A stretch of 24,000 nucleotides of DNA. It comes from Candidatus Heimdallarchaeota archaeon (GTDB lineage Archaea; Asgardarchaeota; Heimdallarchaeia; JABLTI01). Both the position numbers and the translations under genes were made by a program. Location of the stretch: assembly GCA_030614005.1 (NCBI GenBank), contig JAUWKS010000029.1, positions 17,317 to 41,316 of the forward strand. Reading direction: 5' to 3'. This document shows positions 968-19,752 of the stretch, one piece after another. The notes under the pieces were generated by a model. It made no database searches, was not told the origin of the DNA, and was given only the letters and a program-made list of their open reading frames with translations. Each line of letters starts with the position of its first letter. Within the stretch, counting starts at the first letter, position 1.

Positions 968-1513
968 ATGGATCAAAACAATATTCTTATCTATGATGAA
1001 AAAAAAGAAGCAAATTGTGAACCCGATATTGATGAGGATATAATTGTTTATGATTTGGAGCAATATAGACAAAATAGAGAAGCAACTCACATCTTTTTGT
1101 CTGCATTTAAAGTGATGAAAAAGGATTTTGATATTTATCCATTATACTCGAGTAATATACCATTTATAAGTAAATCCAAACAAGAATTAGAATTAACTCA
1201 CTCAATAAATGATACATTAGCAAATATTGAAGAGAAAATCACAATGATAAATAGAAATTTCGATGAAAAAATGAACGAAATAATAAATCGATTAGAATAT
1301 TTTGAAGATCTTTTGTGCAATAATAATGATGAAGAAGAGATTATAGTAATCAAAGATTATACTTACGATAAAGCCAGAAAAATTATTGAAGATCATTTAA
1401 AAAGTGTAAAAAGAAAAGTACCATTAGAAGAATTTATTTTAAACTTTGGCATTGACTTAACACTTGCAAATCAGATAATTACAGATTTATTAAAGGAAAA
1501 AAAAGTGAAATAG
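968..1513 (+). CDS. Hypothetical protein (181 aa) with a possible C-terminal helix-turn-helix
   Basis: ATG preceded by AGGAAGG. Central coiled-coil-like stretch. The C-terminus VPLEEFILNFGIDLTLANQIITDLLKEKK looks like an HTH or winged helix (weak call). Confidence 0.5.
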   Translation: MDQNNILIYDEKKEANCEPDIDEDIIVYDLEQYRQNREATHIFLSAFKVMKKDFDIYPLYSSNIPFISKSKQELELTHSINDTLANIEEKITMINRNFDEKMNEIINRLEYFEDLLCNNNDEEEIIVIKDYTYDKARKIIEDHLKSVKRKVPLEEFILNFGIDLTLANQIITDLLKEKKVK

Positions 1514-1517
1514 GAAA

Positions 1518-1703
1518 ATGACTACATATTATATAGCAAATGATGCAATTGAAGGGAAACAGATTTATTGCTATGCAAGAAAATACGACATTAGTGATAA
1601 AAAAGTTAGATGTAAAAGTAAACATCACTGTTACCTAATAAAATTAAGAAAATATGCGAAATGCATCATTGTTAAACCTGCTGTTGAATGGATCGAAGAT
1701 TAA
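1518..1703 (+). CDS. Small hypothetical protein (61 aa), Cys/His-containing
   Basis: ATG lies 4 nt after the previous stop (coupled). Contains C18, C32, H36, H37, C38 and C49, so possibly metal-binding. No recognisable family. Confidence 0.4.
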   Translation: MTTYYIANDAIEGKQIYCYARKYDISDKKVRCKSKHHCYLIKLRKYAKCIIVKPAVEWIED

Positions 1704-1800
1704 TAGTAAAAAATGATGGATTCCAAATTATAATAAAAATAATTTTTGAGTAGCAATATACAATTAGATTTTATTTATACTTGTTTTATTAAAATAAAAT

Positions 1801-1878
1801 TGGCAGGCCTGGACGGATTTGAACCGCCGACCTCTTGGTCCGAAGCCAAGCACGCTATCCAGGCTGCGCCACAGGCCT
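1801..1878 (-). tRNA. tRNA-Arg, anticodon UCG, CCA encoded, no intron
   Basis: The reverse complement reads AGGCCTG TG GCGC AGCCTGGATA GCGT G CTTGG CTTCGGA CCAAG AGGTC GGCGG TTCAAAT CCGTC CAGGCCT G CCA. This is a full cloverleaf with all stems paired. Confidence 0.92.
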
Positions 1879-3212
1879 AACAATAATTTTTATTCAATCG
1901 GTTCGGTTTTTTAACTTTATGTTAATTACCGAAGCCGAGCATTCTATGGTTTCAATTGTTAATTAACAATCTTCTTGCTTCCTTGAGCTTCTTCTGAAGT
2001 CTCTCCACAAGCACTTCCCGCCAACCCAGCGGTGTTGTCAATTGATGACTGGAACTTCTTTAATCCTCTCTTAAGGATTATTCTTGCTGAATTTTCATCT
2101 CTATCTATGATTAATCCACAATTAGGGCAGCTATGAATTCTCATTGCCAAACTCTTTTCTACTATCGCTTCGCAGTCACTGCAGAGTTGAGTAGTATTAT
2201 ATGGATTTACTAAAATCATTACTTTTCCGCTTTCTACTGTTTTATACGAAAGGAAATTGCGAAATATTCCCCAAGAGACACTACCAATGCTTTTTGCTAA
2301 ATAGCGATTCTGCATCATATTTTCTATTTTTAAATCCTCAAGAGAAATTAAATCATAGGTATTCACTAATTTTGTTGCTTCTTTTTGGATGTAGTCTTTT
2401 CGTTGATTGCGAATCTTTTGGTGTATATTTGCTATCTTTAAACATTGTTTTCTCCAATTATTTGACCCTTTAACCATTCGCGATAATCTTCTTTGTTCTT
2501 TTGCTAAATTTTTCTCAAAAGAGTATATCCATTTTGGATTTTCGATAACATCACCATTGCTTAACGTTCCATATTTTGTTAATCCAACATCAATACCTAT
2601 TGCTTTATTTATGTCAATATTAGAATTAGGAATTTCTGAAGATATTTGAAAAACAATGAAAGCATACCATTGGTTAACATCTCGTTTTACTGTGAAGTTT
2701 TTATGATTGCTTTCTCAGGAATTGCTCTATCTATGACTACCTTAACTAAACCGATTTTTCCCAACTTTAATTTCTTATCAATTATTTTAAATCGATAACC
2801 ATTAGCATATTCGGTATATGTAAAGGATTTGTAATCTTTTCTTTTCTTAGATTTTGGTTTGCCCCATTTTGAATTTCCTTTTGCTCGTTCTTCAATAAAA
2901 CGTCCAAAGGCATAATCTACTCTTTTAGCGACATTCTGAAGTATATGAGCATTAGGGTCTTTGTAAGAAATGGTTCTCCTTCTTCATCTCTGGAAGTTGT
3001 TTTATCTGGTCAAAACAGCTAATGTATTTTCGTTCTTCCTTTGGAAAATCTTTGATTTTTTCATAATGATCGTGTCTTTGTTTTATGAAATCATTGTATA
3101 GTCGTCTGCAAGTTTCCACCCATTCTTTGAAAGTTTCCTCTTGTTTTTTAGTTGGATAAAGACGATATTTGAATGTTTTAGAAAATATTTTTTGACCAGA
3201 CATTTCAACCAC
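1879..3212 (-). mobile_element. IS200/IS605-family (lone-tnpB, IS1341-like) element remnant; ends not defined
   Basis: Contains tnpB only, with no Y1 tnpA. A bulged hairpin, TCGGTTCGG(1898-1906)/CCGAAGCCGA(1929-1938), lies between the tnpB stop and the tRNA-Arg 5' end and may be a right-end or omega-RNA structure. The left end may lie beyond 3212 (see the element at 3448-3536). Confidence 0.55.
1959..3212 (-). pseudogene. tnpB: tnpB (RuvC-like RNA-guided nuclease, OrfB) disrupted by two frameshifts
   Basis: The N-terminus is SKTFKYRLYPTKKQEETF. The middle segment HILQNVAKRVDYAFGRFIEERAKG...GLVKVVIDRAIPEK is in a different frame. The C-terminal part carries GIDVGL (RuvC I), SLEDLKIENM (RuvC II), a CSDC...CPNC zinc ribbon and DRDENSARIIL (RuvC III). 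Frame changes fall within 2955-2983 and 2690-2714. Confidence 0.88.
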
Positions 3213-3277
3213 ATTGTTACCGTATGGTTATATTATGGAATACGATATATTTAAGTATTATGGTAACCAAATGGTTA

Positions 3278-3445
3278 ATGAGGACAAAAGAAATGCCATT
3301 AGAATTTCGAAGAAAAGTAATTGACAATAACAAAAGTTTGATGGTAAATATTCCATATGAGATTGCTCAGCAATTAGAAATAAATAAAGGGGATACGATA
3401 ATTATTACTTATGAAGATGGATTTTTCAAATGTAGAAAGGGATAA
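3278..3445 (+). CDS. AbrB/SpoVT (MazE-like) swapped-hairpin DNA-binding domain protein
   Basis: SLMVNIPYEIAQQLEINKGDTIIITYEDG matches the SpoVT-AbrB pattern (xIPkeiaxxLgixxGdxvxi). The ORF is open from 3224, with ATG candidates at 3278 and 3293. No partner toxin gene is adjacent. Confidence 0.65.
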   Translation: MRTKEMPLEFRRKVIDNNKSLMVNIPYEIAQQLEINKGDTIIITYEDGFFKCRKG

Positions 3446-3447
3446 TT

Positions 3448-3536
3448 TCTCAATAGAAATTCACGTGGAGCGTTGTGAATCACTGTAAGTGTTGAACAGC
3501 GACGGCGTGAGTCTGCTCCGAGCAAGAGTATTGAGA
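3448..3536. other. GC-rich, multi-hairpin structured element (possible ncRNA or IS end)
   Basis: An outer 8-bp stem TCTCAATA(3448-3455)/TATTGAGA(3529-3536) encloses three hairpins: ATTCAC(3459-3464)/GTGAAT(3475-3480); CAC/GTG (3481-3491); and AGCGAC/GTCTGCT (about 3498-3517, one bulge). I count about 55% G+C over 3462-3528, in AT-rich flanks. Confidence 0.35.
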
Positions 3537-3684
3537 TTTTTAATATTGATTTACAACCATTACTTGTTAAATTGGATTATTCTAACTGTTACATCAATAA
3601 TACAAGTATTTGACAAAGAAAAAAGTTAAATCAATTGATTATTTAACAAATAATCCTTAAAGAGAGTTAGCTGAAACTGATCCC

Positions 3685-5256
3685 TTATTTTTTAGATTCA
3701 ATTGTTAATAATGCGCTTTTTGAAATGTTTAATCGCTGTTTGATACTATCTAACTTTAACTCGAAATCATCCTCAGTATAATTAGTATTAGTAAAAACTT
3801 CAAACTTTGAAATCACATTTTTATCTGAGTCATATACTATAATTGTACTTTTTTCTGTTTGTAAACCATTCATATCAGGTATTTTTGATAATAGATTAAT
3901 CCTTAATTCGTGAGATTTTTCTATATCAATAAATGATTCATCTATTAATGTGTGAATTGTTTCCTTTTTCATGTTAAGATAGATAGCTATTAAAATTGAT
4001 TTTCTTAAATAATCCAATAGAGTAATAGAGAATTCTTTAATGCTCCCAAATTTCTCATTAATTCTTTTATGATTTTTCGCACCAATCGTACCCCCATGAA
4101 CGTATTTGCTTCTAATTTCATAAGCCTCCTTTATTAAACTAACAATTTTAGCCGGTTTATCTATAGATAAAATTCCAAGCAATTTTGCAATTCTTGATCG
4201 AAGCTTAAAGCTTAGCTCCCCAGGATCTGTACCTCTAAGATAAATCGCTTCTAATCCCATGATTGCATTAGCAATTCTTTCCTCATCAGTTTTACCATGA
4301 AAAATAGAATCCTTATATCGTAAAAAAGCAATTGAAAGGTAATCAACTTTCTTCTCTTCATTAATGTAGAAATTCTTTGGGAGTAAATTACTAAGTCTTT
4401 TCAAGAAACCAATTAATTCTTTAACATTATCTGGTGTTATGATTACTTTCTTTAAAGTAGGAAAAATAAATTGTCTGTTTCCCACTCTTACTGGAAAAAT
4501 TGGGTTCATAGTAGAAATAATGGAATCTGAGCTTAATTCATATCGAATGTATCTAACACTTCCAACTTGATATAGTATTATAATTGAAAGTACTTGTTCA
4601 ATCAGAATCTGAATTGCTCTTGGATTTCTAACTTCGCAAGTAAGGTTTAAGATTGCATCAGGGGGATAAAATAAATCTCTTTGAATAGCAAATGAATACT
4701 CGATTTTCTCAAAGTCTTCCTTTGAAGTTTGTTTAATCTCTAATATAGTTGAATTTACTTGAAATTCAAATGTAGGAGTTAAAACAACTAAATCTTTTAG
4801 TTCAATCTTTGCATATGAGCTTATGAGTTCATCATTGAGTTGCTTAAAGAATATATCTAATTTTCTTTTGATTATGCTATTATCAATTTTTTCTTCTTGA
4901 ATTGAAACTTTTATAATTGCATCTATAAAATCACTTTGCAATTTTATCTCATTTTCATTTGGATAATTTTCTTTTAACAATGACAATATTTTTTGATAAA
5001 GAGAAAATTCTAATATATCTTCTTTGAACTTCATTACTCTCTTATTACCATCAATATATTCAACTGGTTTGCTAGTCGTAGCAGGTCTTGCGCCTTCAAT
5101 ATCATATTCAAATTTCGTTACTTCTGTTTTGACAAATGAATTGTATATAATTGGTTTGAATTTAGTCTTTTCAATATTTTTCCGGACATAATCATAAATC
5201 TCTATTGAGTATTCCAATAAAGCATCTCTAAGGTTTCTAAATTTTTGATTGTTCAT
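3685..5256 (-). CDS. HEPN-domain protein (Apea-like HEPN at the C-terminal half, uncharacterised N-terminal domain); putative RNase
   Basis: 523 aa. Residues ~305-430 read LRYKDSIFHG...AIMGLEAIYLRG...LRSRIAKLLG...AYEIRSKYVHGG. They carry the HEPN Rx4H motif (R382 at 4111-4113, H387 at 4096-4098) in the usual helical context. Confidence 0.6.
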   Translation of the reverse strand: MNNQKFRNLRDALLEYSIEIYDYVRKNIEKTKFKPIIYNSFVKTEVTKFEYDIEGARPATTSKPVEYIDGNKRVMKFKEDILEFSLYQKILSLLKENYPNENEIKLQSDFIDAIIKVSIQEEKIDNSIIKRKLDIFFKQLNDELISSYAKIELKDLVVLTPTFEFQVNSTILEIKQTSKEDFEKIEYSFAIQRDLFYPPDAILNLTCEVRNPRAIQILIEQVLSIIILYQVGSVRYIRYELSSDSIISTMNPIFPVRVGNRQFIFPTLKKVIITPDNVKELIGFLKRLSNLLPKNFYINEEKKVDYLSIAFLRYKDSIFHGKTDEERIANAIMGLEAIYLRGTDPGELSFKLRSRIAKLLGILSIDKPAKIVSLIKEAYEIRSKYVHGGTIGAKNHKRINEKFGSIKEFSITLLDYLRKSILIAIYLNMKKETIHTLIDESFIDIEKSHELRINLLSKIPDMNGLQTEKSTIIVYDSDKNVISKFEVFTNTNYTEDDFELKLDSIKQRLNISKSALLTIESKK

Positions 5257-5286
5257 TTGATATACCTCATTGAATTTGAGAGTTAC

Positions 5287-6288
5287 TCAAATTTTCCCTT
5301 TTGATTGAAGAAAACTAATAACAATAACAACAATCGAAATGATCAAAAATGATACAAAAAGTCCTGTATTCACACCATTAAACCAACCTGCAGTATTAGC
5401 AACCTTTTCAATAATAAAATCAATGATTACGTATCCTAACTGGACAAGGATTAAAAGCCACCAATTCTTACTTCCTTTGAAAGTAACAATTGCTGTGGCA
5501 AGTTGCTGTAGTTGGGGAGCGCTCAATCGCGGAGTTTCTCTTGAGTCAGTAACAAGTTGTGTTAATGATTCATTTAAATGATTAACTTTTTCTTCTACAC
5601 TACAGATAATCTGTTCTTGATTGATTGTTCGAGCTAATAGCTCTTGCTGAATATCATCATCTTCTAATTGCTCTATAATCTCTCGAACTTTGGTAACTTC
5701 TTCTTTAACAATGCCTACTTCTTGCTTAATTATTTGGAGGTGAGAAATTTGATTCATAACTTCTTCAGTTTCCATGTTATTAATGAAATCTTCAAACAAA
5801 GAAATTTGTGCTGAATCTAATTCGCCAGCATCTATCATTTTCCCTATTATGATTTCTCCTTCGCTACCTCTTCCTTCTAACTTAATAAGAGCTTTAGCGA
5901 AACCAAATTTAGCATCACTTGATGTTAGTGAATTCAAATCAGATTTTATTAAGCTAATAGCATTTGTAGCTTTCATTTCACCAAGTGCTAAAACAGATAA
6001 TATACGAACTGATTCCTCAGAATCTTGAGGCATACATTTTATAAGTTCAGGTTCTATTAAATGGATTTTAGTGGGAAATCTACGTCCAATTAATCCAAGT
6101 GCTTCAGCTGCAAGGGAGCGTATTTCCGGATCTTTATAATTTAAGACGGAAACTAATTTTGGAATCTGTTCTGTTGCATCTTGTTCTCTTGATGGTGCCA
6201 TATCTGCAGAATAAAAAGCTGATAGATCAATCGTTTGAAAAATAGAGATGAATTTCCTAATGTTACTTTTACTAATGCGTTGACTCAT
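5287..6288 (-). CDS. HEAT-repeat / coiled-coil protein with two C-terminal transmembrane helices
   Basis: PBS-lyase-type HEAT repeats (IPKLVSVLNYKDPEIRSLAAEALGLIG and EESVRILSVLALGEMKATNAISLI). A long acidic coiled coil. C-terminal WWLLILVQLGYVIIDFII and GLFVSFLIISIVVIVISFL. The ATG at 6288 follows GGAG; the ORF is open to a TTG at 6324. It ends 30 nt upstream of the HEPN gene on the same strand. Confidence 0.6.
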   Translation of the reverse strand: MSQRISKSNIRKFISIFQTIDLSAFYSADMAPSREQDATEQIPKLVSVLNYKDPEIRSLAAEALGLIGRRFPTKIHLIEPELIKCMPQDSEESVRILSVLALGEMKATNAISLIKSDLNSLTSSDAKFGFAKALIKLEGRGSEGEIIIGKMIDAGELDSAQISLFEDFINNMETEEVMNQISHLQIIKQEVGIVKEEVTKVREIIEQLEDDDIQQELLARTINQEQIICSVEEKVNHLNESLTQLVTDSRETPRLSAPQLQQLATAIVTFKGSKNWWLLILVQLGYVIIDFIIEKVANTAGWFNGVNTGLFVSFLIISIVVIVISFLQSKGKI

Positions 6289-6816
6289 ATCCTTTTCTTC
6301 TCCAATAAATAACTCAAAAACCAATACTCATAGAAATACAAAAGGGTTTCCAACGAAGCATACTTTATTGCATTAAAATCAGAACATAAAGGAATATAGA
6401 ATTATAATAATTTAAACACTACGTAAGTGAGTAATAGAGAAATCAAAAGGGATGCAAAATAAGAAAAAATGCCCTAAAAATACTCAAAAGAAGAGAAATC
6501 GACTTGGTAAAAACAATTTTAAAAATAAACATTTTCAAATAATATTATTGTAGATAAAGAAAGAATTCATCAAATTTCTTGGTTGTATTTATTTAAGAGT
6601 AAATCTTTTAGACCAAAATTTAATCATCTCTAACTTAACTCTTCTAGAAAATAATAAACAACTTTTTACCTAATTTTATTATTTGCCAATCTTTCATTCA
6701 ATTAGTATATGAGATTTGAAAAAATAGGTTTAAATAATAAAAGACTGAATTATATCTTTAGAAGAGGAATTAAAATAAAAATGGCTTTTAAAAATTAGAA
6801 AAAGATATTATTAATT

Positions 6817-7722
6817 TTGATTGTTATTTTTTGTATTGTTGGTATTAATATATTTAATTACCATTTAATTAGACCTTTTGGTCAAAAAAGAAATCCAAAA
6901 TATATGGCTATTATACCTAAATATGAGAATAACACTTCTGTAAAAATTTCTATTTATATGGGGGGCAGTTATTTTGACTATTTGGGATTATCCAATGAAG
7001 ACATTAATGTAAATTCAATGAAAAAATATGGTTGTAAAATAGTTTTTGAAATAAATAACAGTGTCTACTTAGATATTCCAGAATATTTTGAACAAGGGAA
7101 TATCATCTGGGATTCACCGAATGAGTTTATCTATCCATATAAAGATACAGCAGAAATTGTTTATAAAAATGGAACAATAGATGACCCTTTTCATTTATCT
7201 GGTTATTTCATCGATGCAAGTGATTTGCAAATAAATGAAACATTAGAATTTGCAGGATATTTTGATGAAATGGTAACACAACCAACAAGAGAGAAATTTA
7301 TATTGGAATTATTTACTATCGGTGTTGATGAATTTGGTAAAGAGTTGAATATAGATATTGATGTTTATTTCGATGAATTGGATTTTTATGAAAAGGGTTA
7401 TGAAATCGAAGAAACAAATGGAGAACTCTCTTTTTATTTCATTGGAGCTCCAGTAATTTCAAATTTCATTACTAACATTTTCTCCATGGATCATTTGGAT
7501 AGAATTTTCTATAATATTCCAGTTCTTATTGAATACACTAAAAGAAGTAGTAGGAATATAGAATTTTTCGGAAATTTATTGATTGGATTATTATTACCTT
7601 TTGAGATTACCATATTACTAAAAGTTTTAAATTTTAATGAGAAAAACAAAACCAAGGATACAAAGGTTAAACAAAACTATATTCAAGTGTGTTACATCTC
7701 AACGAAAAGCGTTACTCATTAG
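6817..7722 (+). CDS. Hypothetical membrane-anchored protein (N- and C-terminal hydrophobic segments); possibly a pseudogene
   Basis: 301-aa ORF starting at TTG. An in-frame ATG at 6781 would give a classical leader MAFKN-KKILLILIVIFCIVG but is separated from the ORF by TAG at 6796-6798. Confidence 0.5.
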   Translation: MIVIFCIVGINIFNYHLIRPFGQKRNPKYMAIIPKYENNTSVKISIYMGGSYFDYLGLSNEDINVNSMKKYGCKIVFEINNSVYLDIPEYFEQGNIIWDSPNEFIYPYKDTAEIVYKNGTIDDPFHLSGYFIDASDLQINETLEFAGYFDEMVTQPTREKFILELFTIGVDEFGKELNIDIDVYFDELDFYEKGYEIEETNGELSFYFIGAPVISNFITNIFSMDHLDRIFYNIPVLIEYTKRSSRNIEFFGNLLIGLLLPFEITILLKVLNFNEKNKTKDTKVKQNYIQVCYISTKSVTH

Positions 7723-7824
7723 AAAAAAACTCCAAAATACTGGAATAAACATGTGAGCGATTTGGTAACAAACAATGAAATAAAAAAGACGAAAGTTGAA
7801 CACTCATGTAGCCTTTAAAAAACG

Positions 7825-7863
7825 CCGAGAGGTTCGGCGGTTCAAATCCGTCCAGGCCTGCCA
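7825..7863 (+). pseudogene. 3' fragment of a tRNA-Arg-like gene (position ~39 to CCA), inverted relative to the intact tRNA-Arg
   Basis: 7834-7863 (TCGGCGGTTCAAATCCGTCCAGGCCTGCCA) is the exact reverse complement of 1801-1830. 7825-7833 (CCGAGAGGT) differs from the intact gene (CCAAGAGG) by one substitution and one extra T. No 5' half lies upstream. Confidence 0.8.
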
Positions 7864-7942
7864 ATTTATTTCTACTCTTTTTCATTGCCTAAAGATTTAA
7901 TAGTTAATTATTAACATCATTATATCATATAGTAAATTATTC

Positions 7943-8071
7943 ATGGAGAACAAAACTATGGACTGGTGGGTCATTTTACTAATCGTTCTTGGAAGCATTG
8001 TGGGTTTAATTGCCCTCGTTGTTATTGGCTTTATGGGTTTTCTAGCGATTACAGCTGATTCTAGAAAATAA
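7943..8071 (+). CDS. Small single-pass membrane protein (42 aa; not in the supplied ORF track)
   Basis: My own translation gives MENKTMDWWVILLIVLGSIVGLIALVVIGFMGFLAITADSRK, one clear transmembrane helix. There is an alternative ATG at 7958. Confidence 0.4.
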   Translation: MENKTMDWWVILLIVLGSIVGLIALVVIGFMGFLAITADSRK

Positions 8072-8147
8072 CCCAATAGCTCTTATCCTCTTAAAGAATG
8101 CAAAAAAAACTTTGCATCACTTGTATAGTGGTGCATTTTTTACCTTT

Positions 8148-9719
8148 TTAGCTGCCAATTATTTTTGCTATATTTCTGTTCATTTTGTCAGCTATTTCTC
8201 TTCTTTCTTTGCTTTTCGCTTTTCCTAAACCTATTTCCGTGATTATTTTTGTGTATCTTCCCGTTCCACTTGGTCTTATACTTATTACAAGATTGTTTTC
8301 ATTCTTATCTTGAACGATCAAGTTTTGACCATCCAATGTTGATCTATAGATTACTTCATGTTCTTTTGTAAGATAGTCCATTATTTCCTTGGATGATTTT
8401 AGGACTTTTTCTAGTCTTTGTGGATAATTCAAATTTAACATATCTATTTGTGTTTTTAACACATCTACTGACGGGAATTCCGGTAGCTTTTCATTCTCTT
8501 TGAACCAATGCATTAGCCATAGTGCATGTTGAAATGGAGATTTCATGCAAATTGGATGTGATTTATTGAAGAAGATGTCTGTATAGTCCGCACCTGATAT
8601 TTTATTTATGCTTGGGTTTTCTGCTAGTAGTTCTGCTACTCCTAAAAAGAATGCGGGTTCTCCTTGTGCAGTTGCATAAACTTTTTTTGTATATTTACTT
8701 AATGCTGAGAGCATTAGTAATGAAATTCTCTCTTGTACTAGCACATATTCATCTGGTTTAGTTACTTTTGCTTCTGCTATTAATCCCGTTGTAAACGATT
8801 CTTCTTGATTCATTACTATTTTATCTTTTCCGATTCCAGGTGTTTTCACAAGAAATGTTCTATCTGCATCTGCATCATGATTGAAAACTGCTTGTGTCTT
8901 TTTGTAATATTTTTCTGCCAATTCATCCCAAATTTCTCTTGGATCCCTATCTGGTGCTGTTGGATTTAAGACGTTATTGTCAAGAGAAATATCTGCATTT
9001 GATTCTCTATCGATTATTTCCCATATCTCCCCTGCCATACTATGCCTGCAATCAACGATAAATTCTCCTTCGATTTTATCCATTGGAGTCACTTTTTTTA
9101 GCGATTTGAAAAATTCCTCCCTCATATCTTTTGTATCTAGTTTTTCAACAGAGCCGATATCTTTTGGGTGCACCATTTGATTTTCCCCAATCATCCCTTC
9201 AATAACCGGTGCAAGTGTTCTTGGCAAAAATCCGAAAATGCTATTCTTTTTTATGCTTTTTGGAAAATCAATTGTTGCGCCATTTTTTTGTAAAAGATCA
9301 ACTGCATTTCCAATATTTATTACCAATTTCAATCCCACATATTGTTGTGGACTATGACTTCTTCCGAAAAAGCATCCTGGTAATCCGTGCTTATAGCATG
9401 AGAACATGAACTCTGGTACTGTTACAGGACCATCCAACTCGATGATATTTATCCCACTTCTTCTCATATATTCTTTTGAGCTTATTGAAATTGACTTGTG
9501 TACTCTGCTTCCATCGTATCCAATGAGAACATCACTTTCAATTGTTTTTGCAAAACCTGTCGCGTATTTATCAAAGAAATCAGCATTATATACGGAATAC
9601 AAATCTCGAGGTCCATTTGTTCCAGTTAATTGAGCTAGCTTGATATCAAATTTATATTTTGAAACAAAACTTGGATTAGATGTACTTAATACTAGTGGTT
9701 CTAGCTTTGGGAGAGTCAT
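8148..9719 (-). CDS. Alpha-D-phosphohexomutase superfamily enzyme (phosphoglucomutase/phosphomannomutase/AGM1-like)
   Basis: Has a catalytic-serine-loop-like GRSHSPQQYVGLK (compare TASHNPxxxNGxK) and a metal loop HDADADR (compare DGDxDR). The ATG at 9719 follows GGTGA; the ORF is open to a TTG at 9764. Confidence 0.75.
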   Translation of the reverse strand: MTLPKLEPLVLSTSNPSFVSKYKFDIKLAQLTGTNGPRDLYSVYNADFFDKYATGFAKTIESDVLIGYDGSRVHKSISISSKEYMRRSGINIIELDGPVTVPEFMFSCYKHGLPGCFFGRSHSPQQYVGLKLVINIGNAVDLLQKNGATIDFPKSIKKNSIFGFLPRTLAPVIEGMIGENQMVHPKDIGSVEKLDTKDMREEFFKSLKKVTPMDKIEGEFIVDCRHSMAGEIWEIIDRESNADISLDNNVLNPTAPDRDPREIWDELAEKYYKKTQAVFNHDADADRTFLVKTPGIGKDKIVMNQEESFTTGLIAEAKVTKPDEYVLVQERISLLMLSALSKYTKKVYATAQGEPAFFLGVAELLAENPSINKISGADYTDIFFNKSHPICMKSPFQHALWLMHWFKENEKLPEFPSVDVLKTQIDMLNLNYPQRLEKVLKSSKEIMDYLTKEHEVIYRSTLDGQNLIVQDKNENNLVISIRPSGTGRYTKIITEIGLGKAKSKERREIADKMNRNIAKIIGS

Positions 9720-11163: not shown

Positions 11164-12921
11164 TTACTCGGTTTCATATTCGTCTAAATCTACTGCATCT
11201 TCCCCTTCTTCTTCATCGAGTTCCTCTTCAGGCTCTTCCGATTTTTCCGAAGGAGTGCCTTTTGGTGTTTTTACTACTCTAACGAAAAAGAAAGTTAATG
11301 CAATTAAACCTATGATAATTGTTAACGCAAATGTGATTATATATGGTATTGGAACATCTAATGGTTCAGGTCCTGGAGGAAATACTTCCAAATAAAGATC
11401 TGTCGTAGTATTGTAACCATACCCTCTTTTGTGACCGACAATATTAATATAAACTGTTCCTCTGCCAATTTCATTTGTGTCAATTGTGCAAGAGAAATTT
11501 GTGTTATCAGTGGTTTCCATGTTTATTTCTAACACTATATTGGAACTTCGCACTACTCTTAGTGTAACATTTATCCCTTCAATAAGAGTATTATTTTGAG
11601 CGATATATGTAACATTTGAGTTTATTATATCCCCTTGATTAAGGGTAAAAGTACTCAAATCAAAGTTTGAATTTTGAATCACTGCATACATCTTTGTTAA
11701 CCATTGTATTGTTCTTTGGAAAAAGAATTCATTTTCAGGGTTTCGTCCCATTTGTGTATCATTAAAGATATTTGCTGAACCGATTGTTGCAATTCGTCCA
11801 TTATTCTTTGTCTCTGTTAAAACGATTAGAGTATTATTTAAACCAATGGTTTCATTTTCATCAACAACACCATTTCCATTTTCGTCTGCAAAAGTTGTTT
11901 CATTACCACTTGCTAAAACGTAACTATCAACAATTTCTCCAGCGACTTGAAGGTCATAGAATTCCAAGCTTTCTTCTATCCAAGTTTCATTTATTTCTAA
12001 CATGGGTCCAGCATAATTTATTGTTGGAACTATTTCATCAGTTAATGGCACATATTGATTTTCTGTTAGAATTGGATGATCCATGAATTCTGAAACAAAA
12101 AATGTTGAAAGAGTATTATTTTCACCAATTGGATCACTTAAATCGGTTGAATTTATGCACATAGCTGTTGCATTATCAAAATGGATTCCAAATGGTTGAA
12201 TTAGTTCATTAACGTTTGTAAAAATCGAATCAGCTGAACCTGCTATTAAAAGCCCACCGCCATCTCTTACAAACTGAGTTATTGCTTCAATTTCAAATAT
12301 GGTGAAATTTTTTGTTGAATCGTTTGGTTCTAAAATAATTAAAAGATCTATACCAGCTAGTGTAGAATTAATAACATGAGCATCTTCATTAAAACTGAAC
12401 TTGAACTCACTATCTTGAATCCAATTAACTAACCCAGAATATTTTGATTTTATTCCATTGTTATCAGTATTGTGTCTCAAGTCGAAGAGGATGTTTACTT
12501 CATCATGTCTAGGTAAGTCAGGGACATAAGGATCTTCTACATTAAAGGTTCCTGTTTCTGAACAGTTTACTGAGGAGTAAGTAAATTCTCCAATTTTGTT
12601 TGCAATGAATTCAACTACAATTGTTGTATTAGCTTCAATTACTTCATTTATACCGTACTCGACTATTACAAAAGTGTGACCTATATCTATACTTTCTATT
12701 GTAAGGTTTACAGCTGCGCTTTCTTTTACTGTAAATGATTCAGGAGTAAACGCTGTCTTTGACACATTGATGTGTAAATTGAACTCACCAACATGAAATA
12801 GATCAGGTGTTAATTCATCATCAATTTGACTCTGCATTGCATTTGCTGCTAGGCTCTCTCCAATAACTAAAAAGGAGATTATTGATATTATCATTAGTAG
12901 TTTTTTTATCTTCAATTGCAA
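11164..12921 (-). CDS. Secreted, membrane-anchored surface glycoprotein candidate: cupredoxin-like fold, then a GldG/DUF4350-like domain, a C-terminal TM and an acidic tail
   Basis: Signal peptide MQLKIKKLLMIISIISFLVIGESLAANA. FTPESFTVKESAAVNLTIESIDIGHTFVI...GEFTYSSVNC resembles a cupredoxin-like domain. LLIILEPND...EIEAITQFVRDGGGLLIAGSADS resembles a GATase1-like or ABC auxiliary domain. Roughly 20 N-x-S/T sequons. TM helix IPYIITFALTIIIGLIALTFFFV, then an EEPEEELDEEEGED tail. Confidence 0.6.
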   Translation of the reverse strand: MQLKIKKLLMIISIISFLVIGESLAANAMQSQIDDELTPDLFHVGEFNLHINVSKTAFTPESFTVKESAAVNLTIESIDIGHTFVIVEYGINEVIEANTTIVVEFIANKIGEFTYSSVNCSETGTFNVEDPYVPDLPRHDEVNILFDLRHNTDNNGIKSKYSGLVNWIQDSEFKFSFNEDAHVINSTLAGIDLLIILEPNDSTKNFTIFEIEAITQFVRDGGGLLIAGSADSIFTNVNELIQPFGIHFDNATAMCINSTDLSDPIGENNTLSTFFVSEFMDHPILTENQYVPLTDEIVPTINYAGPMLEINETWIEESLEFYDLQVAGEIVDSYVLASGNETTFADENGNGVVDENETIGLNNTLIVLTETKNNGRIATIGSANIFNDTQMGRNPENEFFFQRTIQWLTKMYAVIQNSNFDLSTFTLNQGDIINSNVTYIAQNNTLIEGINVTLRVVRSSNIVLEINMETTDNTNFSCTIDTNEIGRGTVYINIVGHKRGYGYNTTTDLYLEVFPPGPEPLDVPIPYIITFALTIIIGLIALTFFFVRVVKTPKGTPSEKSEEPEEELDEEEGEDAVDLDEYETE

Positions 12922-17270: not shown

Positions 17271-19139
17271 ATGGGAATTTATTTGAGACGAAAAATATTT
17301 TTCTTATTAGTATTAATGATTTTGAATTTTGGCTTAGTAAAAACTGAATTGAATGGTGAGAGTAATACTCAGTTTATTGTTTCAATTAAAAATCAATCAA
17401 TTATAAATAGCTCCTCATATAGTGATTGGTTTGCTTTGGTTATTAATCAGCTTTATACGCAGGATTTATTGACTGATGATTACAATGAAACCAAATTTCA
17501 TTCAGCATTTATTGATGTAGTAACTAACGCAAAGTATTGGCCAGAGGAACTAGCGATAAATAAAGAGGAATACTTAGATCCCTCAGTTGAAGAGATTGTT
17601 GTTTCAACTCCAACTGAATTGAATGGTTCCCTTCTAATGTTTAATCCTTATTATCTAAATTATTATACTCCATATCTCACAGAATTTTTTCTGTTTAGCC
17701 TAGTTGATTCTTTAAATGCAACTACTAAATACCATTCATGGGATTTTTCAGAAGAAATAACACAAGTAGGAACAATTGAGAAATTCATTAACGCTTCACT
17801 TAACACATTGCTCTTACGAGAAGTCAATGGTAAAATAGTTGGTAGAACTTTTGATTACGCTAATAACTACTCTAGTATCAGCAACTTAAGATCTGCATTG
17901 AAATGGCTTGATTATTCATTTAATACTTCTTTACTAATAGCAACAATCCAAAAACAAATCGATAGTCTTTCAACAGTAACCTTCCCTAATTGGTATTCAT
18001 CAGCAGCTTATGGATTATTATGTATTGAAACTGGTCAAGAATTTTCTAATAATTCTCTTGTTAACTTTGGTGAATCAGTTATAGATTATCTTTGGAACAA
18101 TAAAGAGTTCACTAACGATGATGATTCAGAAGGTTATAAATTTACAATAGCACTAGATTTAGTTGATTATAATAATAGCTATGCAAAGGAAATAACAGAT
18201 TTCGGTATTAGTTTATTATTCCCTAATATGGGAGTTGATTTACTACAACCTATAGTGGCTTCACAAGAATACTATAATTATCTCAAAAATGATACTTTTC
18301 ATTCCATTTATTTATATTACAATATCTTTGACTTGTTTGAATTAATGGAAGTTTTGGATGAACATTATCCTGAAAAAAACTATCCAACAATTCAAAAGAA
18401 AATAATGAATTACTACTTCTCAATATGTTACTATTCGCCTGTATTAAATAGATATACCATGGATTATTCAACACATGCATCTCTACTTCTAAATGATTTT
18501 TATTCTAGTCAGGATATTTTATTTAGAGGTCATCTATTTTACTTGGCAAAACTCCTTGGGCAATACTGTTCTGAATTTGGTGCTATTAATGATACTGAAG
18601 CGCCTATGCTTGAAACATTCTATGCTACTGGAAAGAAAACAGTATTTACTGATAATGGTGTTTTTGTTAATAATCAGTTCAAAGCAATAGATAACAATTT
18701 TACATTAATTGCTAGTTGTGAAACTGAGGGATATTTTCTACTAAAAATTATCATGAGGGATGAGCTTTCTGGATTTGTGGATTCAAAATTTGTAATTGAT
18801 AATTCAACAATTTTCTCGCCATGTGACAATAGTAACAATACACTCTTACCCTTTCAGTATACAAATCACACTGTAACTAGTGTAATTAAGAAAGATTTTG
18901 ATCAGAGTATTTTCTATTATCTATATTCAAAAATGCTAGTAACAAAAGTTTTTGCACTGTATGCCTATGATAAAGTAGGAAATGTTAGGATATCAACAAT
19001 AATCTTTAAGCCGATAACTACAAATAACGAAGGAAGGGCTTATATCATAGGAATAAATACAATTTCAATAATGACTTTATATGGTATTGCAACGGTTATT
19101 ATTTGGCGAACACTTGAAAAACGAGTAAAGCGAGAATAA
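17271..19139 (+). CDS. Large secreted, C-terminally anchored protein of unknown function, sequon-rich
   Basis: MGIYLRRKIFFLLVLMILNFGLV looks like a signal or anchor sequence. A C-terminal TM helix (IIGINTISIMTLYGIATVIIW) is followed by RTLEKRVKRE. Many N-x-S/T sites. The ORF is open from a TTG at 17202. Confidence 0.6.
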   Translation: MGIYLRRKIFFLLVLMILNFGLVKTELNGESNTQFIVSIKNQSIINSSSYSDWFALVINQLYTQDLLTDDYNETKFHSAFIDVVTNAKYWPEELAINKEEYLDPSVEEIVVSTPTELNGSLLMFNPYYLNYYTPYLTEFFLFSLVDSLNATTKYHSWDFSEEITQVGTIEKFINASLNTLLLREVNGKIVGRTFDYANNYSSISNLRSALKWLDYSFNTSLLIATIQKQIDSLSTVTFPNWYSSAAYGLLCIETGQEFSNNSLVNFGESVIDYLWNNKEFTNDDDSEGYKFTIALDLVDYNNSYAKEITDFGISLLFPNMGVDLLQPIVASQEYYNYLKNDTFHSIYLYYNIFDLFELMEVLDEHYPEKNYPTIQKKIMNYYFSICYYSPVLNRYTMDYSTHASLLLNDFYSSQDILFRGHLFYLAKLLGQYCSEFGAINDTEAPMLETFYATGKKTVFTDNGVFVNNQFKAIDNNFTLIASCETEGYFLLKIIMRDELSGFVDSKFVIDNSTIFSPCDNSNNTLLPFQYTNHTVTSVIKKDFDQSIFYYLYSKMLVTKVFALYAYDKVGNVRISTIIFKPITTNNEGRAYIIGINTISIMTLYGIATVIIWRTLEKRVKRE

Positions 19140-19633: not shown

Positions 19634-19752
19634 GCCGAGGTAGCCTAGCCTGGTATGGCGGTGGTCTCGAAAATCTTTGGTCGAGAACCTTTTCTCTCGA
19701 GTAAACCACTGCGTGCAAGCGCTCGGGGGTTCGAATCCCCTCCTTGGCACCA
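19634..19752 (+). tRNA. tRNA-Ser, anticodon CGA, with a ~32-nt intron at 37/38 (about 19672-19703), CCA encoded
   Basis: Reads GCCGAGG TA GCC..GGC G GTGGT CTCGAA [intron] A ACCAC TGCGTGCAAGCGCTC GGGGG TTCGAAT CCCCT CCTTGGC A CCA. The intron segment TCGAGAACC pairs with the exon segment GGTCTCGA, as a bulge-helix-bulge substrate would. Confidence 0.9.

Follow-up and report, generated by a model that had tools for sequence, protein, structure and literature searches.

The stretch of DNA analysed here (the window: 24,000 nt, positions 17,317 to 41,316 of the forward strand of contig JAUWKS010000029.1, assembly GCA_030614005.1, Candidatus Heimdallarchaeota archaeon) contains on its minus strand a gene for a 333-residue protein with HEAT repeats, an acidic region and two transmembrane (TM) segments, followed by a gene for a 523-residue protein with a HEPN-like C-terminal domain. 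We put a probability of about 0.6 on the reading that the 523-residue protein acts alone as a defence effector, of the ApeA kind, and that the upstream HEAT gene is a lineage-restricted neighbour outside the conserved system. The HEPN-like gene is most likely self-contained, a distant and unannotated ApeA-like HEPN defence gene. Systems of this kind are known already: a HEPN defence effector and a sensor region are joined in one polypeptide, whose gene is often embedded among restriction-modification (R-M) genes. This family is a remotely ApeA-linked example. An original prediction, made from the letters of the window and a list of its open reading frames (ORFs), had cast the two genes as one system, in which a membrane-associated HEAT protein acts as sensor or scaffold for a HEPN RNase; that proposal is not supported, as homologues of the two genes essentially do not co-occur outside one narrow Heimdallarchaeal lineage.

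A large family of HEPN-like proteins

A word-indexed homologue search with the 523-residue protein recovered four clusters only, and a profile of 135 sequences returned the same four; an exhaustive HMMER search with the four-cluster alignment found 3,294 representatives at E≤1e-3, with 1,258 at E≤1e-10 and 646 at E≤1e-30. Most members are about 450 residues long and are matched across nearly their full length, and a Pfam scan of ten of them gave no match. The family is large, has no model in the copies of Pfam, NCBIfam and PADLOC that were searched, and is scattered across archaea and bacteria. Its occurrence in viral contigs is rare (three loci).

Four residues, E336, Y379, R382 and H387, are invariant in the 135-sequence alignment, and R313, Y314, E325, E347, R355, R418, K431 and D439, as well as S383, are near-invariant. 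R382 and H387 are the two ends of the Rx4H motif that had been picked out by eye within EIRSKYVHG, and the translation agrees (Table 1). Compared with its orthologue at locus L001 (assembly GCA_019058195.1), the HEPN-like gene has a ratio of non-synonymous to synonymous substitution rates (dN/dS) of 0.215 and is under purifying selection.

The same C-terminal domain, with a motif of the YNVRSKVIHG type, is also found with other, shorter N-termini at two loci (L026, 4449-5468; L027, 4476-5516). A Sinorhizobium plasmid protein with this domain, annotated as 'HEPN domain-containing protein', adjoins DUF4145 and Tn7-like tniB/tniQ genes, and in Pseudoalteromonas an ORF that carries YNVRSKVIHG adjoins one that by eye resembles a tyrosine recombinase gene.

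Predicted structure and HEPN hallmarks

The AlphaFold2 (AF2) model of the 523-residue protein, built with the 135-sequence alignment, has a predicted local distance difference test score (pLDDT) of 93.1 and a predicted template modelling score (pTM) of 0.92. It divides the protein into a mixed alpha/beta N-terminal region, an all-helical C-domain and a C-terminal tail that is modelled with lower confidence (Table 1). The helices of the C-domain span residues 306-319, 324-339, 348-362, 368-386, 393-403, 406-427, 431-441 and 445-458. In HEPN domains the Rx4-6H motif closes core helix-3 and runs into the loop that follows, and helix-2 carries a conserved acidic residue (Anantharaman et al. 2013, PMC3710099). 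When secondary structures are compared, helix 368-386 has R382 at its end and H387 as the first loop residue after it, and E336 lies within helix 324-339, before the motif helix. The Rx4-6H motif, its position in an all-alpha domain and the acidic residue of helix-2 are thus all found, at the level of secondary structure.

Matches to HEPN models are weak and fall within the C-domain: HEPN_RiboL-PSP in three of 100 members (best 5.4e-4), HEPN_Apea in one of 100 (6.9e-3) and CARF_HEPN_CSX20 in member P0004 (3e-3). HEPN_Apea is also the top Pfam match of the family consensus (0.03), where it spans the motif. The C-terminal HEPN hallmarks claimed for the window protein are borne out by the Rx4H motif and glutamate that are invariant in 135 relatives, by the position of the motif at a helix end and by the weak matches to three HEPN models. 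The narrower label 'Apea-type' is not, since no Pfam HEPN family reaches its threshold for the window protein.

The N-terminal 300 or so residues gave no match in Pfam, NCBIfam or PADLOC and no Foldseek match in PDB or BFVD. Searched by sequence profile, PDB returned spurious S18 matches only. The C-terminal beta-beta-alpha tail (modelled at 467-523) is shared with P0002 and P0010 only, neither of which has a HEAT neighbour. Between the window and L001 this tail has a dN/dS of about 1 (two synonymous and nine non-synonymous changes, in few sites) compared with about 0.2 for the rest of the protein.

Relationship to ApeA

ApeA is the single-gene defence system of Gao et al. 2020, represented in Pfam by HEPN_Apea (PF18739) and ApeA_NTD1. 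ApeA-type proteins are self-inhibited products of single genes; ApeA senses through a pocket and cuts the tRNA anticodon loop or phage RNA. We traced Ec1ApeA and Ec5ApeA in E. coli genomes by means of the partial insert sequences that a preprint supplement gives, and Ec1ApeA carries the PGAP name 'HEPN family anti-phage protein ApeA'. A tblastn search for more ApeA sequences in plasmids and phages gave no match, so the ApeA profile was kept at these two sequences.

Alignment of the family to the Ec1/Ec5 ApeA profile with hhalign yields two colinear local matches. The first pairs residues 212-339 with ApeA 277-392, aligning RY...E with an equal 22-residue spacing and placing residues 212-300 of the N-terminal region on the ApeA Mid/linker region; the second pairs residues 358-431 with ApeA 498-563 and aligns Y-x-x-R-[SN]-K-x-x-H. 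Of 150 column shuffles, one attained the top score and none the colinear sum of 50.3 (maximum 37.4); a reversed control gave 14.4. Taken with the weak but consistent matches to HEPN models, these comparisons lead us to regard the C-domain as HEPN-like and as a remote relative of ApeA.

The likeness extends to architecture and setting. As in ApeA, one polypeptide combines a non-catalytic N-terminal part of about 300 residues with a single C-terminal HEPN-type domain, an arrangement that rests on the AF2 model and on partner genes being variable or absent at about 20 loci, and the motifs RY...22 residues...E and Y-x-x-R-[SN]-K-x-x-H are colinear. Both occur in defence islands and embedded in R-M operons, in bacteria and archaea, and such embedding is recorded in the 'ApeA/BMEI1217' row of the 2013 HEPN census (Anantharaman et al., PMC3710099). 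The differences are nevertheless substantial: family members are shorter (about 450 residues, and 523 here, against about 600 for ApeA), the gap from the conserved glutamate to the arginine of Rx4H is 46 residues rather than the 132 of Ec1ApeA, the N-terminal region has long beta-hairpins in the AF2 model whereas ApeA is described as predominantly alpha-helical, and no model of Pfam, NCBIfam or PADLOC picks out the family.

Several results weigh against reading the window protein as a HEPN effector of the ApeA kind. Against Pfam, PADLOC and NCBIfam it has no match, even with the limit relaxed to E≤1, and the window protein, the consensus and eight members gave no ApeA_NTD1, no NCBIfam and no significant PADLOC match. 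None of the curated HEPN models reaches threshold for the family, and the HEPN_Apea score of the consensus is 15.2 bits against a cut-off of 24.4, so that neither this gathering score nor recognition by ApeA_NTD1, NCBIfam or PADLOC places the family within ApeA. The hhalign probability is only 3%, from a two-sequence template with an effective number of sequences (Neff) of 1.7. Foldseek comparison of the models with PDB and BFVD returned nothing at E≤0.1, and the best HEPN entry in the PDB search was HepS, at rank 50 with E=2.6. There are also no R-M genes adjoining the window copy of the gene.

Family members among defence genes

Neighbourhoods of family members were compared at 16 genome loci, from Aenigmatarchaeota, Methanocellales, Methanoregula, Methanoperedens, Thermoproteota, Thermococci, Paceibacterota, Saprospiraceae, Armatimonadia, Clostridium, Gastranaerophilales and unclassified metagenome-assembled genomes, to which further contigs were added. 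At two loci (L010 and L014) the family member stands between hsdS and hsdR in an hsdM-hsdS-member-hsdR order, and at L022 hsdS is followed by a HEPN gene (PF05168), the family member and, further on, hsdR. Another (L011) is found with a type IIG enzyme, and at L008, L009 and L017 the member lies between a PglX-like methylase gene and brxL, with overlapping stop and start codons. Elsewhere an AbiU2 gene is directly upstream (L015), or the neighbour is GmrSD (L012), an HNH gene (L024) or an OLD-family nuclease (L039). Among the nearest relatives, P0003 is in an element of the MCM/MJECL type beside a PIN gene, P0010 is preceded by a 95-residue gene whose product looks, by eye, like a winged helix-turn-helix protein, and P0002 has no partner gene. 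Many members have no R-M genes around them, and the window gene is one of these. The neighbourhood pattern of the family is that of a defence gene.

Two of these loci are of separate interest. At L008 (3945-10397), and also at L009 and L017, a PglX/MmeI-like methyltransferase of 1,223 residues, the family member (448 residues) and BrxL are seen with no other BREX genes, and this trio may be a compact BREX-like system. At L039 (2289-4337) the member P0121 adjoins an OLD-family nuclease with AAA_15/AAA_21 and TOPRIM domains and SbcCD-like genes.

Other HEPN systems share some of these features. The anticodon nucleases PrrC and RloC are likewise HEPN-type and encoded between hsd genes in type I R-M operons, where they act as a second-line RNase that backs up restriction (PMC3710099). 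They differ in having an N-terminal ABC-ATPase, which Pfam does not find in the window protein or in 100 members, and PrrC-type membership was rejected for this reason; moreover, the window copy adjoins no R-M genes, although its relatives at L010, L014 and L022 are embedded in type I R-M loci. The abortive-infection proteins Abi2/AbiD/AbiF, AbiU2 and AbiJ resemble the family in their Rx4-6H domain, defence-island or R-M setting and sporadic distribution, but their Pfam models give no significant matches and the N-terminal region of the family is different and larger. HepT-MNT (HEPN-MNT) pairs, in which the product of the gene directly upstream controls a HEPN RNase, are the formal analogue of the two-gene idea; here, however, the upstream product is a HEAT/TM protein rather than a nucleotidyltransferase, and the family as a whole does not keep the pairing. 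Membership of the HEPN-MNT type was rejected because neither neighbour has a nucleotidyltransferase domain.

The HEAT gene and its association with the HEPN-like gene

The upstream protein matches the Pfam models HEAT_2 (E=2.5e-10, 40.9 bits against a gathering score of 27.7) and HEAT (E=3.9e-07, 30.2 bits against 23.5). The repeats of the original prediction are therefore confirmed, but not their assignment to the PBS-lyase type, since HEAT_PBS is matched at E=0.22 only. Of the predicted acidic coiled coil the acidic character stands (21 D/E against 8 K/R in residues 166-265), and in the Pfam scan coiled-coil families gave weak matches only. Two hydrophobic segments, at residues 275-297 and 305-328, agree with the two predicted C-terminal TM helices. 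Homologues of this protein were found in three genomes only, two metagenome scans adding none; the orthologues are 90% identical at L001 and 80% at L003, and the gene has a dN/dS of 0.15-0.22.

The island at L001 encodes a further HEAT protein (1915-3234), of 439 residues with HEAT_2 repeats and a Schlafen AlbA_2 domain, at a distance of 8 kb upstream from the pair, and HEAT repeats may have a wider use in defence-type proteins of this lineage.

The two genes are on the same strand and 30 nt apart, as predicted, with no terminator-like site found between them on the minus strand. The pair is kept at L001, where the HEAT and HEPN-like proteins are 90% and 92% identical to those of the window, the spacer is 31 nt and the setting includes DUF6602, HNH, UDG, DUF2779, methylase and AlwI genes. 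The only segment that this locus has in common with the window is a block of 2.68 kb at 93% identity (3685-6361), bounded on one side exactly by the stop codon of the HEPN-like gene and on the other by a point 73 nt before the HEAT start; beyond it, not even tblastx relates the flanks. Synonymous divergence (dS) differs little between the two genes (0.21 and 0.17), and dN/dS is about 0.2 in each. The single block, the unrelated flanks and the similar dS together indicate that the HEAT and HEPN-like genes moved as one piece.

Elsewhere the two genes are found apart. The pair is present only in the window and at L001/L002, and beyond this lineage the two gene families essentially never co-occur, an outcome that the original prediction had itself named as one against it; at other loci the HEPN-like gene is without the HEAT gene. 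No HEAT or similar partner was found at about 20 other family neighbourhoods, and the nearest relatives, P0002, P0010 and P0003, have no partner or different neighbours. A 331-residue gene upstream of the family member at L006 was considered as an analogue of the HEAT gene and rejected, as it has no Pfam match and no similarity to the HEAT protein. Conversely, L003/L004 (GCA_050009915.1) keep the HEAT gene without the HEPN-like gene: their gene order follows that of L001 up to and including the HEAT gene, departs from it immediately past the HEAT stop codon and returns to it at DUF2779, with unrelated genes between. In these copies the HEAT gene has a dN/dS of 0.15-0.17 and is under purifying selection. 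From the break at L003/L004 and the constraint on the HEAT gene there, we take this gene to lie at the edge of a variable slot and to work without its HEPN-like neighbour; the lack of a HEAT gene at other loci indicates in turn that the HEPN-like family works without the HEAT gene. The association is possibly a local one, recently acquired, in two Heimdallarchaeal genomes.

Proposed mechanism and alternatives

In the reading that we prefer, a sensor or regulatory region of about 300 residues would be fused to one HEPN-type RNase domain. By analogy with HEPN and ApeA biology, two copies would pair by way of their HEPN domains, bringing two Rx4H motifs together into a single metal-independent RNase site; auto-inhibition would be lifted by an infection signal sensed by the N-terminal region, and the released enzyme would cut tRNA or other, possibly viral, RNA. 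The HEAT/acidic/TM gene would have moved with the HEPN-like gene in two genomes and would have retained a function of its own where the HEPN-like gene is absent.

The alternatives concern mainly the role of the HEAT gene. A two-component system, in which a membrane-anchored HEAT/coiled-coil protein senses or scaffolds at the membrane and controls the HEPN RNase, would account for the common strand, the spacing of 30-31 nt in both genomes that have the two genes, the shared 2.68-kb block (93% identity) between unrelated flanks, the nearly equal dS values and the apparent lack of a terminator, but it is difficult to reconcile with L003/L004, where the HEAT gene is kept at 80% amino acid identity and under constraint with no HEPN-like gene, with the 20 or so neighbourhoods that have no such partner, with P0002 and P0010, which share the C-tail of this subfamily and lack the HEAT gene, or with the confinement of HEAT-protein homologues to three genomes. 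We consider such a system unlikely, and an accessory role for the HEAT protein just as unlikely; the 'sensor' link between the HEAT-TM protein and the HEPN-like protein is weak, and a joint HEAT-TM/HEPN system, though the most striking part of the original prediction, is the part with least support. Much less probable still is that the HEAT/acidic protein is an antitoxin-like inhibitor of the HEPN-like protein, forming a pair of the type II toxin-antitoxin kind in which the acidic region masks the RNase. The upstream gene of this tight pair does encode a strongly acidic segment, HEPN toxins commonly have a neutralising partner encoded upstream (PMC3710099), and an orphan antitoxin could account for the HEAT gene alone at L003. 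However, membrane anchoring and HEAT repeats are not known as antitoxin features, Pfam finds no MNT or other known antitoxin domain, no conserved upstream partner is present in the other family members, and proteins of the ApeA type are self-inhibited without one. The HEAT gene is probably an independent neighbour of the HEPN-like gene.

The nuclease itself could also be questioned. If the C-domain were not a nuclease, and the arginine and histidine served for binding, the family could be an accessory or regulatory subunit of R-M and BREX-like systems, a role that would suit its tight embedding, with overlapping stop and start codons, between methylase and BrxL genes or between hsdS and hsdR, and that would sit easily with the lack of a significant fold or profile match to any HEPN. 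Yet the E, Y, R and H residues are strictly invariant in the HEPN pattern and position, the colinear motif alignment with ApeA exceeds its shuffled controls, and many members, that of the window among them, stand apart from R-M genes; we regard this explanation as improbable. A broader proposal joins two claims, that the family of about 450 residues represents a widespread and hitherto unrecognised class of R-M/BREX-associated HEPN RNases, a distant sister group of ApeA acting as a PrrC-like second-line guard, and that one of its branches, in Heimdallarchaeia, has gained a genuine membrane-anchored HEAT/coiled-coil partner. The two together are doubtful, but if true would amount to a membrane-coupled HEPN defence module in Asgard archaea without a described counterpart.

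The preferred reading of a stand-alone ApeA-kind effector has consequences of its own. If the HEPN assignment is true, a family of thousands of sequence clusters, with members inside type I R-M and PglX-like/BrxL operons of archaea and bacteria and beside other defence genes, would be a HEPN RNase for which the copies of Pfam, NCBIfam and PADLOC that were searched have no model; modelling the family would then improve the annotation of archaeal defence islands, and the ApeA type of ligand-gated RNase would extend to much shorter, divergent proteins. The pairing with the HEAT-TM protein would matter only given a physical or functional link, and is at present a local association in two genomes.

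The locus and its island

The features of the locus are collected in Table 1. The upstream ORF is open to a TTG at 6324 (5287-6324, minus strand), and the ATG at 6288, its likely start, yields 333 residues, which is also the length of the orthologue P0005. A short A+T-rich inverted repeat across the HEAT stop codon was rejected as a regulatory element because its fold is no better than shuffles (z = -1.0 to -1.4); it has no T-run.

Table 1. Features of the HEAT/HEPN-like locus and its surroundings (window coordinates)
Feature	Position	Strand	Basis
tRNA-Arg(TCG), island boundary	1801..1878	-	
Decayed TnpB (IS605 OrfB-type), fragments 1959-2477 and 2952-3212	1959..3212	-	
AbrB/MazE-type gene, 73 aa, convergent with the HEPN-like gene	3224..3445	+	PF04014, E=5.1e-06
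Gene for the predicted ApeA-like HEPN-type protein, 523 aa	3685..5256	-	ORF, family search, AF2 model
C-terminal beta-beta-alpha tail, residues 461-523	3688..3876	-	AF2 model, lower confidence
All-helical HEPN-like C-domain, residues 301-460	3877..4356	-	AF2 model, weak HEPN matches
Rx4H codons, R382-S-K-Y-V-H387 (within EIRSKYVHG)	4096..4113	-	Translation
E336 codon (MGLEA motif), invariant acidic residue of presumed HEPN helix-2	4249..4251	-	
N-terminal region, residues 1-300, mixed alpha/beta, presumed sensor/regulatory	4357..5256	-	AF2 model
Inter-gene spacer, 30 nt	5257..5286	-	31 nt in L001
HEAT-repeat/acidic/two-TM protein gene, 333 aa	5287..6288	-	ORF, Pfam, hydropathy
C-terminal pair of hydrophobic (TM) segments, residues 275-328	5305..5466	-	Kyte-Doolittle windows >1.6
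Conserved region upstream of the HEAT gene, with A+T-rich TTATTTATT box	6289..6361	-	blastn block 3685-6361, three-way alignment
Inverted 41-nt copy of the tRNA-Arg 3' end, other island boundary	7834..7874	+	93% complementary

The placing of the pair in an accessory island is upheld by the TnpB fragments, the tRNA-derived repeat and the lack of CTCGAG, and a defence context is seen also at L001 and in the family. About 6 kb from tRNA-Arg(TCG) there is a second, inverted copy of its 3' end (1790-1830 and 7834-7874; 41 nt, 93%), and between the two copies lie the TnpB remnants, the AbrB/MazE gene, the HEPN-like and HEAT genes and a 301-residue ORF. The copies are inverted rather than direct, for which integration followed by inversion is one possibility. 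The motif CTCGAG occurs 17 times in the window compared with 1.7 expected from shuffles, and is absent from 1153 to 9604; the G+C content of positions 1-1500 is only 22-24%. Given this gap and the low G+C content, the foreign segment may exceed the 6 kb bounded by the tRNA sequences. A fragment resembling the 5' half of a tRNA lies at 3-40.

Small AbrB/MazE-type (PF04014) genes are near family members at three unrelated loci: in the window (3224-3445, plus strand), at L005 (2138-2302) and at L006 (3514-8198). Mobile-element context alone may account for them.

Two features lie outside the island. A 116-nt tRNA at 19634-19749 (plus strand) is found by Rfam (44.6 bits) and missed by ARAGORN, and is probably an intron-containing archaeal tRNA. 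A 585-residue protein encoded at 11164-12921 (minus strand) has OST48_N and IFT52-GIFT-like matches, a long acidic tail and, by eye, an apparent membrane anchor, and fits an Asgard (Heimdallarchaeal) origin of the window.

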